Positions 10,553 through 56,366 of a stretch of 64,000 nucleotides of DNA are shown here, piece after piece. Made by a program: the position numbers and the translations under genes. Location of the stretch: the IMG/VR virus record IMGVR_UViG_3300007609_000013, positions 1 to 64,000 of that record. One strand, 5' to 3'. The notes beneath the pieces are model-generated. The model made no database searches and was not told the origin of the DNA. It worked only from the letters and a program-made list of their open reading frames with translations. Within the stretch, counting starts at the first letter, position 1. Every line of letters starts with the position of its first letter. The stretch is from a virus.

Positions 10553-10993
10553 ATGGCTAGAAAATTTGCACAGGGTAAGTTTTATCCTAAAAACCCAAAC
10601 AAATATGTAGGCAAAAAAAATCCAACCTATCGCAGCAGTTGGGAGTGGGCTTTTATGAACTTTTGCGACAACAATCCAGCAGTGCTTCAATGGGCAAGTG
10701 AATCTGTAAGCATACCCTATAAAAATCCATTTGATGGAAGAAACACTATCTATGTTCCAGATTTTTTTATAGTATACACTGATCGCAACGGTGCTAAAAA
10801 CGCAGAGCTTATAGAAATCAAACCAAAAAAACAAACCACACTGGAAGCAGCAGGACGCAGCAAAAAAGATCAAGCCAGTGCAATTCTCAACGCAGCAAAA
10901 TGGCAGGCTGCCAATGCGTATGCTCGACAAAATAGAATTAAATTTAGAGTGGTAACAGAAGAAGAACTATTTCATCAAGGCGGAAAAAAATGA
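10553..10993 (+). CDS. head completion nuclease (T4 gp4-like, TnsA-like PD-(D/E)XK)
   Basis: F.PKNP.KY.G...YRSSWE...W.SE...IPY...YVPDF...EIKP...KW.AA. Confidence 0.9.
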   Translation: MARKFAQGKFYPKNPNKYVGKKNPTYRSSWEWAFMNFCDNNPAVLQWASESVSIPYKNPFDGRNTIYVPDFFIVYTDRNGAKNAELIEIKPKKQTTLEAAGRSKKDQASAILNAAKWQAANAYARQNRIKFRVVTEEELFHQGGKK

Positions 10994-11658
10994 GACTTGT
11001 AGTGTTTGGCGACAGTCATCCAGCTGGCAGTGAAATTGATCAGCAGTACAGTTTGCAGTGTTATGACAAAAGTTTTGCCAAAAAGCTAGCCAATCAATTG
11101 GATTTGGATTATGAAAATTACAGCATCGCAGGAGCAAGCAACTGTTACATTGCAACACAAACCTACAAATATCTCAGCACAGCTGACTCAGATATATTCT
11201 TACTAATCAGTTGGGGAGCTGCCAGAAGAGCAACTGTGTATGACTACGACAGCCGAGATTTCTTGCACATAAACGAATATGATGCAGATGCAGACTATTT
11301 GTCCAAAAAACAAAAGAGTATGATCAAAAGTTTTTATCAATATCAATACCCAGACGCAGAAGAAGAATGGAAAATATTAGGACATATCGTAGGATTGTAC
11401 AATTACTTGACAAACCAAGATTATAATTTTTTAATGATGGATTCAACTCAAGCATTTGCACACTGGCATCAAGGTTATTTCAAAATGAATAATTATTTTG
11501 ATCTACACAATCCACACACATACTGGCACCAATATGAACAATGGCGAACGCAAGAGATATATAACACTGATAGATGGGCAAAGCATGCTCCGGAACAATG
11601 GCATAGCGTGTGGGCTGATAAATTGTTTCATCACGTAAAAGAGTACAAATTATTATGA
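10990..11658 (+). CDS. SGNH/GDSL-like hydrolase #1
   Basis: VFGDSH, GASN and C-terminal HAP...H; ATGA overlaps at both ends. Confidence 0.65.
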   Translation: MRLVVFGDSHPAGSEIDQQYSLQCYDKSFAKKLANQLDLDYENYSIAGASNCYIATQTYKYLSTADSDIFLLISWGAARRATVYDYDSRDFLHINEYDADADYLSKKQKSMIKSFYQYQYPDAEEEWKILGHIVGLYNYLTNQDYNFLMMDSTQAFAHWHQGYFKMNNYFDLHNPHTYWHQYEQWRTQEIYNTDRWAKHAPEQWHSVWADKLFHHVKEYKLL

Positions 11659-51932: not shown

Positions 51933-52937
51933 ATGTACGTAGAAGATTACATAGATTTATTAGCAGGAAAGATTGCTTGCGAGCACTGCAACAACTATGA
52001 TATTGTAAAACTTGCAAAATACGATTATAGCCCTGTGAGAAATATTTCTCGAATTGTAGAATCTGACAGAGGACTGTCAGATCGCCAACGAGAACTTGCA
52101 ATAAAAATTGTGCATACCTATCGTCGTCAATTTGCCAAACACGGTTACGACTGTGAGCACGTTGTTGAAAATCCCAAATGGAGAAGTCCACTAAGAACAG
52201 TTGATAGAACCAAGCTGGTTTGTATCAAGGACCACAGGTTGACAGTTAAATTTCCATTTGAACCCACAATGGTAGACCATTTTAGAAATCTACAGAGATA
52301 TAGTTCAGAAAAATATCCTTGGATAGGCGAAATTGAGTGGAACAAAACTGAAAAACACTGGACTTTTTGTTTGACAGAACACAATATGCTGGGAATTTAC
52401 AACCTAACAAAAAATAAAAATTTTGAATATTGTAATAATTTTAACACTATCATAACTAAAATTTTAAAGGTCAAAAAAAGCAAAAACGCTTACCAAATAA
52501 TCTGTGACATTGTGGATGGAAAAATCAAAATACACAATGCCAGTGAAAGTCTGCAACAGTCATTTGATGCACAAGTCACAGGAGACTTGTTGCTGGATAT
52601 CGGGCTTGCCAAACGCTTAGGAGTAAACAAGTATAGTTTGTCTGTGTTAAGATATCTCCGCAAGAAAAATCCTTTGCTGGTAAAACTGGTGGCAAAAAGA
52701 GTTCTGTGGTTTAAAAAATCCAGTTCGTTGCATGAAATAAGTGCACTGGCAGACGATATAGGACTGTTGCCCATGGGGAATCACACACACTATGATCCTC
52801 CAAAATCTGTTTTTTTCAAAGAAACAATCTACGGATTGAAATCAAAATATCTTGAACAAAGGGTATCACTTGTGTTATACTGTACTCAATATGCGCCATG
52901 GGGTATTGAAGACGCATATTACTTGGAAGGTTATTAA
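51933..52937 (+). CDS. hypothetical protein
   Basis: LSDRQ..LA.KI...Y.RQ, P.WR.P.R.VD; coupled to the helicase gene. Confidence 0.65.
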   Translation: MYVEDYIDLLAGKIACEHCNNYDIVKLAKYDYSPVRNISRIVESDRGLSDRQRELAIKIVHTYRRQFAKHGYDCEHVVENPKWRSPLRTVDRTKLVCIKDHRLTVKFPFEPTMVDHFRNLQRYSSEKYPWIGEIEWNKTEKHWTFCLTEHNMLGIYNLTKNKNFEYCNNFNTIITKILKVKKSKNAYQIICDIVDGKIKIHNASESLQQSFDAQVTGDLLLDIGLAKRLGVNKYSLSVLRYLRKKNPLLVKLVAKRVLWFKKSSSLHEISALADDIGLLPMGNHTHYDPPKSVFFKETIYGLKSKYLEQRVSLVLYCTQYAPWGIEDAYYLEGY

Positions 52938-53962
52938 TGGCTACGGCAAAAATTATTGTCAAAGACGAAGTAAACTGTAAGATCGAAGGTCTCGATCTCA
53001 TGGATCGCAAAAAACTTGTGCAGAAGTTCAAGTATGAAGTTCCATATGCAAGACATTTGCCTGCTGTAAAGTTGGGTAGGTGGGACGGAAAAATAGCATT
53101 TTTTCAAATGGGCGGAAGCACATACATCAATCTATTGCCGGATATTTTGCCTTACTTGGACCAAGCTGGATATGATATTGAGCTAGAAGATTACAGAGAA
53201 TACAAAACAGATTTTGAGTTTGAAAAAATCACCGAGCACAGTTACAATGATAGAGTATGGCCGCCAAAGCATCCAGCAGAAGGCCAGCCTATTACACTGA
53301 GAGACTATCAAGTGGATGTGGTTAATAAATTTTTGCAAAATCCACAGAGTCTACAGGAAGTGTCAACAGGTGCCGGAAAAACCATTATGACTGCTGTGCT
53401 CAGCGACCAGTGCGAAAAGTATGGCAGAACAATTGTGATTGTGCCCAACAAGGATCTTGTGAGCCAAACAGAAGCTGATTACAAAAACATGGGACTGGAC
53501 GTTGGAGTGTTCTATGGAAGCAAAAAAGAGTTTGGCAAAACACACACAATCTGCACATGGCAAAGTTTAAACAGTTTGCTTAAAAAGACCAAAAACCAAG
53601 AAGCTCCTATCACAATTGGAGAGTTCTTAGAGGACGTGGTAGCAGTCATAGTGGATGAATGTTTTGATGGAGATACTCTTATTACTACGACTCGAGGCAA
53701 AACGCCTATTAAAAATTTGAAAGTAGGCGATAAAATAATAAATCTCTGCGAAAAAACAAAACAATATAAAGAAGATACCGTTGCCAAAGTTCATAAAAAT
53801 CTAACACACAGCGAAAGTGAAAAGATGTTAGAATTGGAATTTGACAACGGTATAAAAACTCAAGTCACTGCTAATCACAAATTTCTAACAAACAAAGGAT
53901 GGATTAGAGCAGACGAATTAACAGATAATTTAGAAATTATTGACATAAATACATACGGCTAA
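52937..53962 (+). CDS. uvsW: UvsW-like SF2 helicase N-extein (241 aa) + split intein IntN (100 aa)
   Basis: LRDYQ, TGAGKT, TWQS and VIVDE, followed by CFDGDT (block A) ... TANHKF (block B), then a stop. Confidence 0.92.
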   Translation: MATAKIIVKDEVNCKIEGLDLMDRKKLVQKFKYEVPYARHLPAVKLGRWDGKIAFFQMGGSTYINLLPDILPYLDQAGYDIELEDYREYKTDFEFEKITEHSYNDRVWPPKHPAEGQPITLRDYQVDVVNKFLQNPQSLQEVSTGAGKTIMTAVLSDQCEKYGRTIVIVPNKDLVSQTEADYKNMGLDVGVFYGSKKEFGKTHTICTWQSLNSLLKKTKNQEAPITIGEFLEDVVAVIVDECFDGDTLITTTRGKTPIKNLKVGDKIINLCEKTKQYKEDTVAKVHKNLTHSESEKMLELEFDNGIKTQVTANHKFLTNKGWIRADELTDNLEIIDINTYG

Positions 53963-53978
53963 AGGAGATGTATTTATG
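53944..53978 (+). promoter_or_regulatory. late promoter motif plus 11-bp hairpin covering the endonuclease start codon
   Basis: cataaatacat (53944-53954) / atgtatttatg (53968-53978); AAGGAG in the loop. Confidence 0.75.
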
Positions 53979-54884
53979 GCAAAGCAGTTCGATACGGAAC
54001 GATTTAATAGAATTTTGAGAGAACACAACCAACAACTTCGCGCAGAAAAAATAACTGGTAAGCAAGTTGTTTTATCAAATGGGCTTGTTTTAGATTTGAA
54101 AAAAGAAGTTGATCGTTGTAAAAAAAGAGTTTTGTCAGGACACGATATTTGGAAAAATAATTTCGATCAATTATATTCACTTGATCAACACAAAAGAATT
54201 TCTACAGAAGCAGAATGTAAAAGTTTAATATCAAAAATTGGAGGTATAAACTGTCAAAGAAAGCATGGCGAAAAAGTAAAGTTCAATTTGAATACCGGTA
54301 TTCCGTGGAATAAAGGAACCAAAGGAAATTACCCTTATTCTCATCAACATTCTAAACAGACCAAGGAAAAAATAAGTAATGCCAATCTTGGACAAAAAAA
54401 CGGAATGTTTGGCAAGAAACTCTCTGCAGAACAAAAAGCAGAAAAAAGTAAAAAAATGAAAGAATTAATTTTGTCAGGTAAATTTACTCCTAACTCCAAC
54501 AACAGAAACACTCATTGGGAATCTTTTTATAATAACAAAAAATATAGAAGTTCTTGGGAAGCATTGTATCAGTATTTGGACAATCAGGCAGAATACGAAA
54601 CGCTCAGAATTCCTTATATTTTTGACAATCAAAATTATGTTTACATTGTAGATTTTGTAAACCATGAAACTAAAACAGTAGTTGAAGTAAAACCACAAGA
54701 ACTTATTAATGACAAAAAAACACAGGCAAAAATATCTGCCGCAAAAAAATGGTGCAACGATAACGGATACGTATTTGTGTTAGCAGATAAGAATTATTTT
54801 ATTTCTCGTCCAATACCTAAGGATTTAACAGGGTTTGATATTAAAACTCAAAATAAAATTAGGAAAATTTATGAAATTGGTTAA
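53976..54884 (+). CDS. putative free-standing homing endonuclease (NUMOD3 repeats + TnsA/gp4-like PD-(D/E)XK domain)
   Basis: PWNKG, HSKQTKEKIS, GMFGKKLS; YRSSWE...IPY...YIVDF...VEVKP...K..AAK.WC. Confidence 0.85.
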   Translation: MAKQFDTERFNRILREHNQQLRAEKITGKQVVLSNGLVLDLKKEVDRCKKRVLSGHDIWKNNFDQLYSLDQHKRISTEAECKSLISKIGGINCQRKHGEKVKFNLNTGIPWNKGTKGNYPYSHQHSKQTKEKISNANLGQKNGMFGKKLSAEQKAEKSKKMKELILSGKFTPNSNNRNTHWESFYNNKKYRSSWEALYQYLDNQAEYETLRIPYIFDNQNYVYIVDFVNHETKTVVEVKPQELINDKKTQAKISAAKKWCNDNGYVFVLADKNYFISRPIPKDLTGFDIKTQNKIRKIYEIG

Positions 54885-55713
54885 CAAAAAAGAAATTGAA
54901 AAACCACAAGAAACATATAATTTGCACATAGAACAGGATCATAATTACATTGCAAATGATGCTGTAGTATCAAATTGCCACCAAGCCAAAGCAGATGCTC
55001 TAAAAACACTGCTCACAGGTGTGATGTCGCACATACCCATTAGATGGGGACTCACTGGCACAGTACCAAAGGAAGACTTTGAATTTGTGGGCATTAAAGT
55101 TTCTCTTGGAGATGTGATCAATCGTGTTGCAGCCAGCGATCTGCAAAGCAAAGGCGTGCTGGCAAACTGTCATGTTAATATTGTGCAAATGATTGATCAT
55201 GCCGAGTATCGCGATTATCAAAGTGAACAAAAATACTTGCTCACAGATGATGCCAGATTGGACTACATCAGCACACTTGTACAGGAAGTGAGAAACACAG
55301 GCAATACACTTATATTGGTAGACAGAATCAGCTCGGGCCAGGCACTGGTAGATAAAATACCAGGCGCGGTGTTTATATCTGGCGAAGTAAAAAGCGAACA
55401 ACGCAAAGAACACTATGATGAAATTGCAGACACACAGGACAAAGTGATTGTTGCCACATACGGAGTCGCTGCTGTTGGCATTAATATACCTCGCATCTTT
55501 AATCTTGTGCTTATTGAACCAGGCAAGAGTTTTGTTCGAGTGATTCAAAGCATAGGCAGAGGCGTAAGAAAAGCCAAGGACAAAGACTTTGTACAGATAT
55601 GGGATATCACCAGTACTTGCAAGTTTGCCAAGCGACATTTGACCAAACGAAAACAGTTTTACAAAGAAGCGAACTATCCATTTGCAATTGAAAAGGTAGA
55701 TTGGAAACTATGA
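54871..55713 (+). CDS. uvsW: split intein IntC (35 aa) + UvsW-like helicase C-extein (245 aa)
   Basis: MKLVNKKEI...TYNLHIEQDHNYIANDAVVSN|CHQAK; GLTGT, ATYG....GINI, QSIGRG.R. Confidence 0.92.
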   Translation: MKLVNKKEIEKPQETYNLHIEQDHNYIANDAVVSNCHQAKADALKTLLTGVMSHIPIRWGLTGTVPKEDFEFVGIKVSLGDVINRVAASDLQSKGVLANCHVNIVQMIDHAEYRDYQSEQKYLLTDDARLDYISTLVQEVRNTGNTLILVDRISSGQALVDKIPGAVFISGEVKSEQRKEHYDEIADTQDKVIVATYGVAAVGINIPRIFNLVLIEPGKSFVRVIQSIGRGVRKAKDKDFVQIWDITSTCKFAKRHLTKRKQFYKEANYPFAIEKVDWKL

Positions 55714-56366
55714 CGAAACCAACATTGTTAATTTCTGGGGATAGCTATATGGCTCTTCATAAAGACGGAATAGGCACACCAGAAAGTGTAGAGAAAGATA
55801 ATCAAATTCATTGGTCTAGACATTTAGATCCTTATTTTGAAATCCAAAATGTAGCAAAGGCAGGAAGTTCAAACACTTCAATTGTGTATAGGCTGGTAGA
55901 GGCAATTAAAAAACAAAAACCAGACTACATTCTAATAGGATTCACTGATTATGCTAGACTAGAGTACAATAAATATGAGACTAATTGTCATCCTAGCATA
56001 CAGAAAGATAAATCTGCATACAATGCCTGGAAACAGTATATCAAATATGCAGACGATGATTACATGCGATATAAAAGTATGGCGATTATCGAATATGCGG
56101 TTACCTTAGCAAGATCAATTGCTCCAACATGTTTTGCTCTTAACCTGTTAAACCCATCGGACAGCGACTGGTCATTTTACAACAAACACCAGTTTATGAT
56201 TAATTTTGAGAAAGAATCTTTGCCGGTGAATTTAAGTGATTATCCAGAAATTAGTTTAAACGACCCTAATTGGAAAAGTTTTCATGTGGTCGACCCAAAG
56301 GTTCACGAAAAATTTGCTGAAACTATCCTAGACGAATTCAACATTTGCAAATCAGACAAGGTATAA
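55710..56366 (+). CDS. SGNH-like hydrolase #7
   Basis: ISGDSY, NVA.AGSSN, FHV.D...H..FA. Confidence 0.7.
   Translation: MTKPTLLISGDSYMALHKDGIGTPESVEKDNQIHWSRHLDPYFEIQNVAKAGSSNTSIVYRLVEAIKKQKPDYILIGFTDYARLEYNKYETNCHPSIQKDKSAYNAWKQYIKYADDDYMRYKSMAIIEYAVTLARSIAPTCFALNLLNPSDSDWSFYNKHQFMINFEKESLPVNLSDYPEISLNDPNWKSFHVVDPKVHEKFAETILDEFNICKSDKV

Follow-up and report, generated by a model that had tools for sequence, protein, structure and literature searches.

A gp4/TnsA-like nuclease gene between the halves of a split intein in phage uvsW is probably a homing endonuclease gene

The helicase gene uvsW of an uncultured phage (record IMGVR_UViG_3300007609_000013, analysed at positions 1-64,000; this whole stretch of 64,000 nucleotides (nt) is called the window) is broken into two open reading frames (ORFs), and a third ORF, at 53976-54884, lies between them. 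What does this ORF encode, and what is it doing at that place? A sequence-only reading of the same DNA had proposed a homing endonuclease lying between intein halves, with NUMOD3-like repeats in front of a TnsA-like PD-(D/E)XK nuclease domain. After computational analysis of the locus and its relatives, we consider it likely that the ORF is a free-standing homing endonuclease gene within a split intein that interrupts uvsW at DE^CH (the caret marks the insertion point).

The N and C parts of uvsW are located on adjacent ORFs of the same strand, and the halves of a split intein are found at the break, with Hint above its Pfam cut-off. In the downstream ORF (54871-55713), Pfam finds Helicase_C after a segment that matches the intein splicing domain over its last 35 positions. 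The junctions in the window DNA are gtggatgaa^tgt at the N side and tcaaat^tgccaccaa at the C side, so that the intein is inserted between Glu and Cys of motif II (DE^CH) of uvsW. The reconstructed junction gtggatgaa^tgccaccaa given earlier was read directly in the sequence, and so was the overlap of 14 nt between the endonuclease ORF and the C-terminal intein half (IntC). The splicing residues Cys1, TANH (TxxH), the terminal Asn and Cys+1 are present, and the penultimate residue is Ser, not His. The endonuclease ORF is placed between the two halves, with a hairpin and a late-promoter-like motif upstream and the overlap with IntC at its 3' end; this is the placement that a homing endonuclease gene would have, and the function proposed for it is consistent with that position.

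The domain order that had been proposed agrees with Pfam, which detected NUMOD3 at residues 123-154 (33.4 bits, cut-off 20.4) and Tn7_TnsA-like_N (PF08722) at residues 208-269 (36.8 bits, gathering threshold 26.5). NUMOD3 regions are of the kind present in phage GIY-YIG and HNH homing enzymes. E195, D226, E237 and K239 are invariant in 20 homologues (51-72% identity) and form a canonical E...D...ExK set; the FTPNSNNRNTHW motif is likewise kept in these proteins, and the C-terminal tail ...FD.KT..KI.KLYE is conserved among homologues. For the nuclease gene, dN/dS was 0.12-0.35 in nine pairs, which indicates purifying selection. An AlphaFold2 (AF2) model was built on the alignment of the 20 sequences; it had a pLDDT of 83 and was confident for residues 1-106 and for the C-terminal alpha/beta domain, with the NUMOD3 stretch poorly ordered between them. 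In a fold search carried out without Foldseek, residues 177-285 were nearest to TnsA (1t0f, Z 7.9, 117 residues aligned, root-mean-square deviation 4.9 Å), and next came Vsr (Z 6.3), VRR-NUC, I-Bth0305I (Z 5.6), Hjc and many other restriction-fold nucleases, Z values that are middling on the scale of the tool, the assignment being based on Pfam, motif and fold combined. Structure prediction had been named as a check of the PD-(D/E)XK proposal, and the model agreed with it. Foldseek with the whole model returned weak rows only, with TnsA on top at E 0.05, and the family profile found no chain at E<=1 among all PDB sequences, 3r3p and 1cw0 included. Regarding the Vsr-like (EDxHD) enzymes, DUF559 reached 13.7 bits against a cut-off of 20.6 and the core is without D-x-H-D; taken with the fold ranking, sequence and model point to a TnsA-like nuclease distinct from that family, as had been suggested.

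The N-terminal domain and the NUMOD3 region presumably serve DNA recognition. Residues 85-204 have a sub-threshold match (28 versus 56 bits) to TIGR01453, a model of I-TevI-type group I intron endonucleases, over its DNA-binding half, which fits a modular enzyme with a NUMOD-type DNA-binding arm and a different nuclease. Folded alone, the N-terminal domain had no Foldseek match; the best VIA match was to a MerR-type regulator fold (Z 3.9, root-mean-square deviation 7-8 Å) and was not accepted as an assignment.

The sequence-only reading had also drawn attention to the phage's own head-completion nuclease gp4. BLASTP aligned the endonuclease with it at 31% identity over 128 residues (E 5e-10), and the motifs listed for both proteins (YRSSWE, IPY, Y..DF, E.KP and AAKW) correspond in the alignment; GKF.P.N is common to both as well, and the catalytic residues line up with SSWE, PDF and EIKP of gp4. 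Considering that the endonuclease matches positions 4-143 of the 148 of the phrog_218 profile, its C-terminal 140 residues correspond to a complete gp4. Its best PHROGs are 22417 and 15427, not 218. A FastTree tree without outgroup was computed from 71 excised nuclease domains (metagenomic representatives together with S16, PM2, phiR1-RT, Lak-B4 and WX1) and 17 gp4s, among them those of S16, PM2, phiR1-RT and WX1. The two sets were placed on opposite sides of one branch with an SH-like support of 99 (unrooted), and the endonuclease is outside the group of gp4 head-completion proteins proper (phrog_218). This clean division in two groups indicates that the likeness is an old family relationship and not a recent copy of the phage's own gp4, so the earlier statement holds for the gp4 family and not for the gp4 of this phage; the phylogeny against gp4, which had been proposed as a check, placed the endonucleases in a separate group. 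The gp4 of the window has more than 6000 homologues, and that gp4 is a TnsA-like nuclease of restriction endonuclease fold was already known (PMC7824862, citing Benler 2020). There gp4 is reported as a non-specific enzyme required for morphogenesis; it is a stand-alone protein of about 146 residues, whereas the endonuclease carries 160 extra residues of putative DNA-binding domains and lies within an intein.

The nuclease is widespread. The full protein had 485 relatives at E<=1e-3 in a word-indexed database, the best 120 being nearly all 300-316 residues long. A search with the nuclease domain alone matched 1174 cluster representatives at E<=1e-3, and 607 remained when the limit was set to E<=1e-10. 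By family alignment of the nuclease we retrieved 80 IMG/VR loci (nucleases with 45-70% identity), and all 80 had the order N-extein, IntN (the N-terminal intein half), nuclease, IntC and C-extein, to the extent of each contig. Their junction consensus is (V/I)DE^C...(S/A)N^CH, with identities to the halves in the window of 53-87% for IntN and 60-94% for IntC. The same uvsW cassette is found in the cultured Salmonella phage S16 (gp114, gp114.1 and gp115) and Proteus phage PM2, where IntN is about 60% identical to that of the window and the exteins only about 25%, and in the uvsW of a Lak megaphage when TAG is read as Q. In some metagenomic proteins, such as P0164 and P0188, IntN and nuclease are fused in one frame. 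The recurrence of this large family makes the window one good example and not a unique find. When the locus was compared by megablast with 50,697 phage records, nothing matched. Members of the family are labelled in public records as 'hypothetical protein' or 'endonuclease', and for two of them JGI gives very-short-patch-repair endonuclease.

Related nucleases also split terL in phiR1-RT and many other T4-like phages. The terL of phiR1-RT (L003:2429-5278) is split at Walker B into a 37-residue piece after IDE^C, a gp4/TnsA-like nuclease of 199 residues and a 108-residue piece that ends with SHN^C; the arrangement resembles an intein that is split atypically, its N half being short. In RefSeq this locus is labelled only as two terminase genes and an 'endonuclease'. 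The metagenomic protein P0233 (435 residues) would be a terminase in which two inteins nearly touch: the C-end of one (...VISHN^C) is separated by only eight extein residues (CSLLYIDE) from the N-start of the next (CLVGDTKV...), after which comes a TnsA-like nuclease. In Campylobacter phage vB_CjeM_WX1 (L086:1056-4031) a PIN-PhoH ATPase gene is split by a related nuclease of 370 residues, whose N-terminal part has a weak C2H2 zinc-finger-like match.

If the ORF encodes a homing enzyme, related uvsW genes with and without the cassette are to be compared. The uvsW alleles were surveyed in the best 80 loci by similarity to the C-extein of the window: 77 are uninterrupted, two have a contiguous, nuclease-free intein of 140 residues at the identical site and one ends prematurely. 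The empty alleles are 69-77% identical to the C-extein of the window, above most occupied alleles. Their motif is DEVH in 75 cases, DEAH in one and DETH in one; DECH, the product of a clean excision, was not found among the 77, and acquisition must thus import the Cys+1 codon. A tree was computed from 136 exteins, of which 71 belong to empty and 64 to occupied alleles and one to an allele with a mini-intein; occupied and empty alleles interleave in it with at least 12 changes of state, 8 of them forced by well-supported branches. The cassette nearest to that of the window (locus L004) has an intein 87% identical, a nuclease 70% identical and exteins 61% identical, and the occupied loci with the nearest exteins (70-72%) have nucleases that are 47% identical. 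Intein and nuclease identities are correlated (Spearman 0.70), and each of them is correlated with extein identity at rho 0.51. The presence of the cassette in distant uvsW genes, with exteins about 25% identical, speaks for movement as one unit. Together with the purifying selection on the nuclease gene, this is the pattern of a homing element that is, or was until recently, active and that moves in this way.

Taking into account this distribution, the following mechanism can be proposed. In a mixed infection the enzyme would cut or nick an intein-free uvsW allele of the DEVH type close to the insertion point, and recombinational repair would copy IntN, the endonuclease gene and IntC, with the Cys+1 codon, into the empty allele. 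Occupied alleles would be protected because the cassette disrupts the target site, and the UvsW halves would be joined by trans-splicing after translation, with little cost to the host. The targeting of intein-free uvsW alleles put forward earlier fits this picture, considering that the 77 nearest empty alleles are of the form DE(V/A/T)H and interleave with occupied ones.

Expression of the nuclease may be controlled on the fractured-gene pattern. In the hairpin upstream of the gene, ATAAATA (53945-53951) is in the 5' arm, the IntN stop codon and AAGGAG (53962-53967) are in the loop, and the endonuclease ATG is in the 3' arm. The hairpin could hide this start codon on read-through mRNA, and the late-promoter-like ATAAATA and the 3' end overlapping IntC would complete the control. 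Nearly all of the 51 distinct loci retain the stem words CATAAATAC and G(T/C)RTTTATG, and two frames of the motif relative to IntN occur among them; since in one subfamily the IntN stop codon is inside the motif, it is conserved as DNA and not as codons. On the plus strand of the window, six of eight ATAAATA words are located 12-40 nt 5' of ORFs of at least 80 residues (3564, 8402, 17317, 18085, 53945 and 58988), and these six are candidate late promoters of the phage. The nuclease/IntC overlap measures 4-38 nt in about 50 measurable loci. In most loci an AGGAA box is seen 6-8 nt 5' of the IntC ATG; in two loci the overlap consists of ATGA alone. Of the 16 loci that Dassa 2009 examined for it, 15 have a hairpin with a late promoter, and overlaps, which measure 6-69 bp, were described there for 15 loci (PMC2677866). 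Hairpin, ATAAATA and overlap are textbook fractured-gene signals, which do not show that the helicase depends on translation of the nuclease. The dependence of the helicase on endonuclease expression that had been deduced from the overlap cannot be kept as stated, given the box in front of the IntC ATG at most loci and the generality of such overlaps in fractured genes (PMC2677866).

The same overlap leads to the alternative that survives best, although we regard it as unlikely: the nuclease gene could be a passenger without homing, kept because it supplies the ribosome-binding site and start of IntC, or it may have acquired a host role such as marker exclusion of competing phages or gp4-like DNA processing. 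The overlap is universal among the loci, the C-terminal tail is conserved, gp4 relatives have a morphogenetic role (PMC7824862) and marker exclusion is known for free-standing T4 endonucleases (PMC2988022). However, purifying selection across 302 residues together with invariant catalytic residues is beyond what the constraint of an overlap alone gives. Moreover, occupied and empty alleles interleave among close relatives, the contiguous mini-inteins indicate that the nuclease gene can be lost with uvsW intact, and the nuclease domains are a clade separate from gp4.

A second question is whether the nuclease split the intein, as the sequence-only reading had supposed. At least 10 uvsW protein clusters found by a region-restricted search have their intein in contiguous form, 131-162 residues long and inserted at the same DE^C...N^CH site. 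In an intein tree, which has 133 columns only and is poorly resolved, contiguous and split forms interleave with about 6 changes, 2 of them forced. The split point is directly after the conserved ...INTY. The contiguous intein of P0394 groups near that of the window and has, after a 6-residue linker, a Met at the exact position of the IntC start, a hint that the nuclease gene was lost here and the intein halves fused again. Interconversion between contiguous and split forms is repeated, and the data do not give its direction. Splitting of the intein by nuclease invasion is plausible and fits the model of Dassa (PMC2677866), and the reverse step, from split to contiguous, probably also occurs. 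The supposed invasion agrees with the contiguous mini-inteins at the same site; their interleaving with split forms makes gain and loss of the nuclease both possible.

These mini-inteins could themselves be the target, in which case the enzyme would act on nuclease-less contiguous alleles at the usual insertion point of intein endonucleases and spread within inteins, not into the empty uvsW site. Their number, the changes in the intein tree and a break right after ...INTY speak for this possibility, which nevertheless seems improbable to us: intein and nuclease divergence co-vary strongly (rho 0.70), the whole cassette is present in very distant uvsW genes and the tree in question is poorly resolved. 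That the ORF is a decaying or inactive remnant, its gp4 likeness having no functional meaning, is highly improbable, because even if homing endonuclease genes commonly degenerate after fixation and the activity of this one is a predicted one, full-length ORFs of about 302 residues in more than 100 clusters, the low dN/dS, invariant catalytic residues and a confident AF2 model oppose it.

Other points weigh against a homing endonuclease or its proposed control and have to be set beside the evidence for it. For T4 gp4 a non-specific DNase activity is reported (Benler 2020, cited in PMC7824862), so the site specificity of the endonuclease would depend on its added domains alone. The patchy distribution of the cassette could partly be ordinary recombination between co-infecting phages and not nuclease-driven homing. 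TnsA cuts one strand only, and a double-strand break is therefore not assured for the endonuclease. Biochemical data on any member of this nuclease family were not found in the literature. As to the promoter, TATAAATA occurs 7 times in the window versus 2.5 expected, with only 2 on the coding strand, which is no clear enrichment; ATAAATA likewise shows no clear excess on that strand, and its overall enrichment is weak. This weak enrichment of both words makes the promoter reading weak. Finally, the source phage is uncultured and its genome is represented by a 74-kb fragment, with an estimated completeness of 21%.

Accepted homing endonuclease families are only a handful, and fractured genes have been described with two. 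By comparison with the fractured genes of Dassa 2009 (PMC2677866), the locus of the window has the same elements: the parts of one DNA-metabolism gene on two neighbouring ORFs, intein halves at the break, an endonuclease ORF that is enclosed by these halves and whose start is covered by a hairpin with a TATAAATA-like late promoter, a 3' overlap with IntC (theirs 6-69 bp, in the window 14) and a phage origin. It differs in the enzyme, which is gp4/TnsA-like with an E-D-ExK core, whereas theirs are GIY-YIG or Vsr-like (in gp41, IMPDH, DnaE, NrdA, NrdJ, ligase and terminase); uvsW is absent from their eight host enzymes and no TnsA-like enzyme was reported there. The endonuclease is accordingly a third nuclease type in fractured genes in the sense of Dassa 2009.

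The TnsA of Tn7 (1f1z, 1t0f) is the nearest solved fold, matches the same Pfam TnsA-like N family and has the same PD-(D/E)XK arrangement; the endonuclease, in contrast, is without the TnsA C-terminal domain and the TnsB/TnsC partners, and TnsA nicks one strand in a transpososome. I-Bth0305I, Hef and the other Vsr-like EDxHD enzymes are also modular phage enzymes, with an N-terminal NUMOD-type region and a C-terminal restriction-fold nuclease, and occur in fractured genes, in introns and free-standing (PMC3239194). The endonuclease differs from them by having ExK with Lys and no EDxHD, by a DUF559 score below threshold and by a fold nearer to TnsA than to I-Bth0305I (Z 7.9 versus 5.6). Hef of phage U5 was considered as a member of the gp4/TnsA-like group and rejected, being placed in the Vsr-like family (PMC3239194). 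I-Ssp6803I is an established PD-(D/E)XK homing endonuclease (PMC2677866) and has a canonical active site of this class used for homing; it is compact, intron-encoded and without NUMOD modules, and no similarity to the endonuclease was detected. In T4, SegE targets uvsW from outside that gene (PMC2988022). In S16 a second annotated homing endonuclease gene, gp113 (L001:1676-2311), is directly 5' of the fractured uvsW, in the position of segE in T4. Our literature search found no report that connects homing or inteins with nucleases of the TnsA or gp4 type and none on a split intein in UvsW, and the papers examined on UvsW do not describe an intein in this gene. The arrangement is of a known kind, and the nuclease type and the host gene uvsW are undescribed as far as searched.

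A third and abundant fractured-gene nuclease type on the gp4/TnsA fold would enlarge this range and connect a selfish element with a nuclease that is essential for phage assembly. A broader proposal is tentative and, in our opinion, rather doubtful: gp4/TnsA-like enzymes would form a seventh lineage of homing endonucleases, large (more than 1000 clusters at 50% identity) and so far unrecognised, that has repeatedly fractured phage ATPase genes at the Walker B Asp-Glu (uvsW and terL, phoH being also split), and the T4-like gp4 would be its domesticated descendant or its source. If this were true, a core morphogenesis function and a selfish element would have a common origin. The uvsW locus presents empty, contiguous mini-intein, split with nuclease and IntN-nuclease fusion forms side by side, so that the life cycle of the element is directly testable, and S16 and PM2, which are cultured and carry the same cassette, offer an experimental system. 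Regarding applications, the family may be a source of new tools, both modular nucleases with site specificity and naturally split inteins for ligating proteins, the latter with an ordinary split of 100 + 35 residues in uvsW and an atypical short-N split in terL.

Table 1. Features of the uvsW locus and of gp4 in the window, with the evidence for each.
Feature	Position	Strand	Evidence
Upstream ORF (uvsW N part + IntN)	52937-53962	+	UvsW_N, ResIII, DEAD, then Hint/intein N-part
uvsW N-extein, 241 residues, ends in helicase motif II (...VIVDE)	52937-53659	+	Pfam ResIII, DEAD, UvsW_N; phrog_16259 DNA helicase; sequence
IntN, 100 residues from Cys1 (CFDGDTL...) plus stop; TxxH block (TANH); C-terminal ...INTYG	53660-53962	+	Pfam Hint 30.5 bits (cut-off 29.7); Intein_splicing N-part
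Hairpin, perfect 11-bp stem	53944-53978	+	RNAfold -11.9 kcal/mol, z -3.25
Free-standing endonuclease gene, ATG start, 302 residues	53976-54884	+	ORF list, Pfam, PHROGs, homologues, AF2 model, fold search
Endonuclease N-terminal domain, residues 1-106 (small alpha/beta unit and 36-residue helix)	53976-54293	+	AF2 pLDDT mostly >90
NUMOD3 region, residues 107-160 (Pfam match 123-154), flexible in model	54294-54455	+	PF07460 33.4 bits; pLDDT 50-67
gp4/TnsA-like PD-(D/E)XK nuclease domain, residues 161-302	54456-54881	+	PF08722; invariant residues; TnsA-nearest fold
Candidate catalytic residues E195, D226, E237, K239	54558-54560, 54651-54653, 54684-54686, 54690-54692	+	Alignment of 20 homologues
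AGGAAA, Shine-Dalgarno-like box for IntC, within endonuclease 3' end	54861-54866	+	Sequence
IntC, 35 residues (MKLV...NDAVVSN), start ATG at 54871	54871-54975	+	Pfam Intein_splicing positions 120-155
uvsW C-extein, first residue Cys+1 (CHQAKAD...)	54976-55713	+	Pfam Helicase_C; phrog_9690
gp4-type head-completion nuclease, 146 residues, comparison partner	10553-10993	+	PF08722 77.8 bits (1e-21); phrog_218 'head closure' 7e-45

In several uvsW relatives it was possible to see a second break in the N-extein, near residues 148-211 (L006:350-2987 and L103:749-2404; also L007-L015, L034 and L055), so that uvsW has at least two invasion sites. The gap at this second break contains an ORF or extension of 370-553 residues without any Pfam match. 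In two proteins (P0422 and P0427) a LAGLIDADG domain, which apparently belongs to a second intein, precedes the helicase ResIII region; that this could be the same intein with an in-frame endonuclease was considered and rejected, because the Pfam coordinates put LAGLIDADG in the second, upstream intein. Two further ORFs of the window, at 10990-11658 (directly 3' of gp4) and 55701-56366 (directly 3' of the uvsW C part), encode proteins of about 221 residues each that start with GDS(H/Y) like SGNH/GDSL-type hydrolases, and they may be paralogues.

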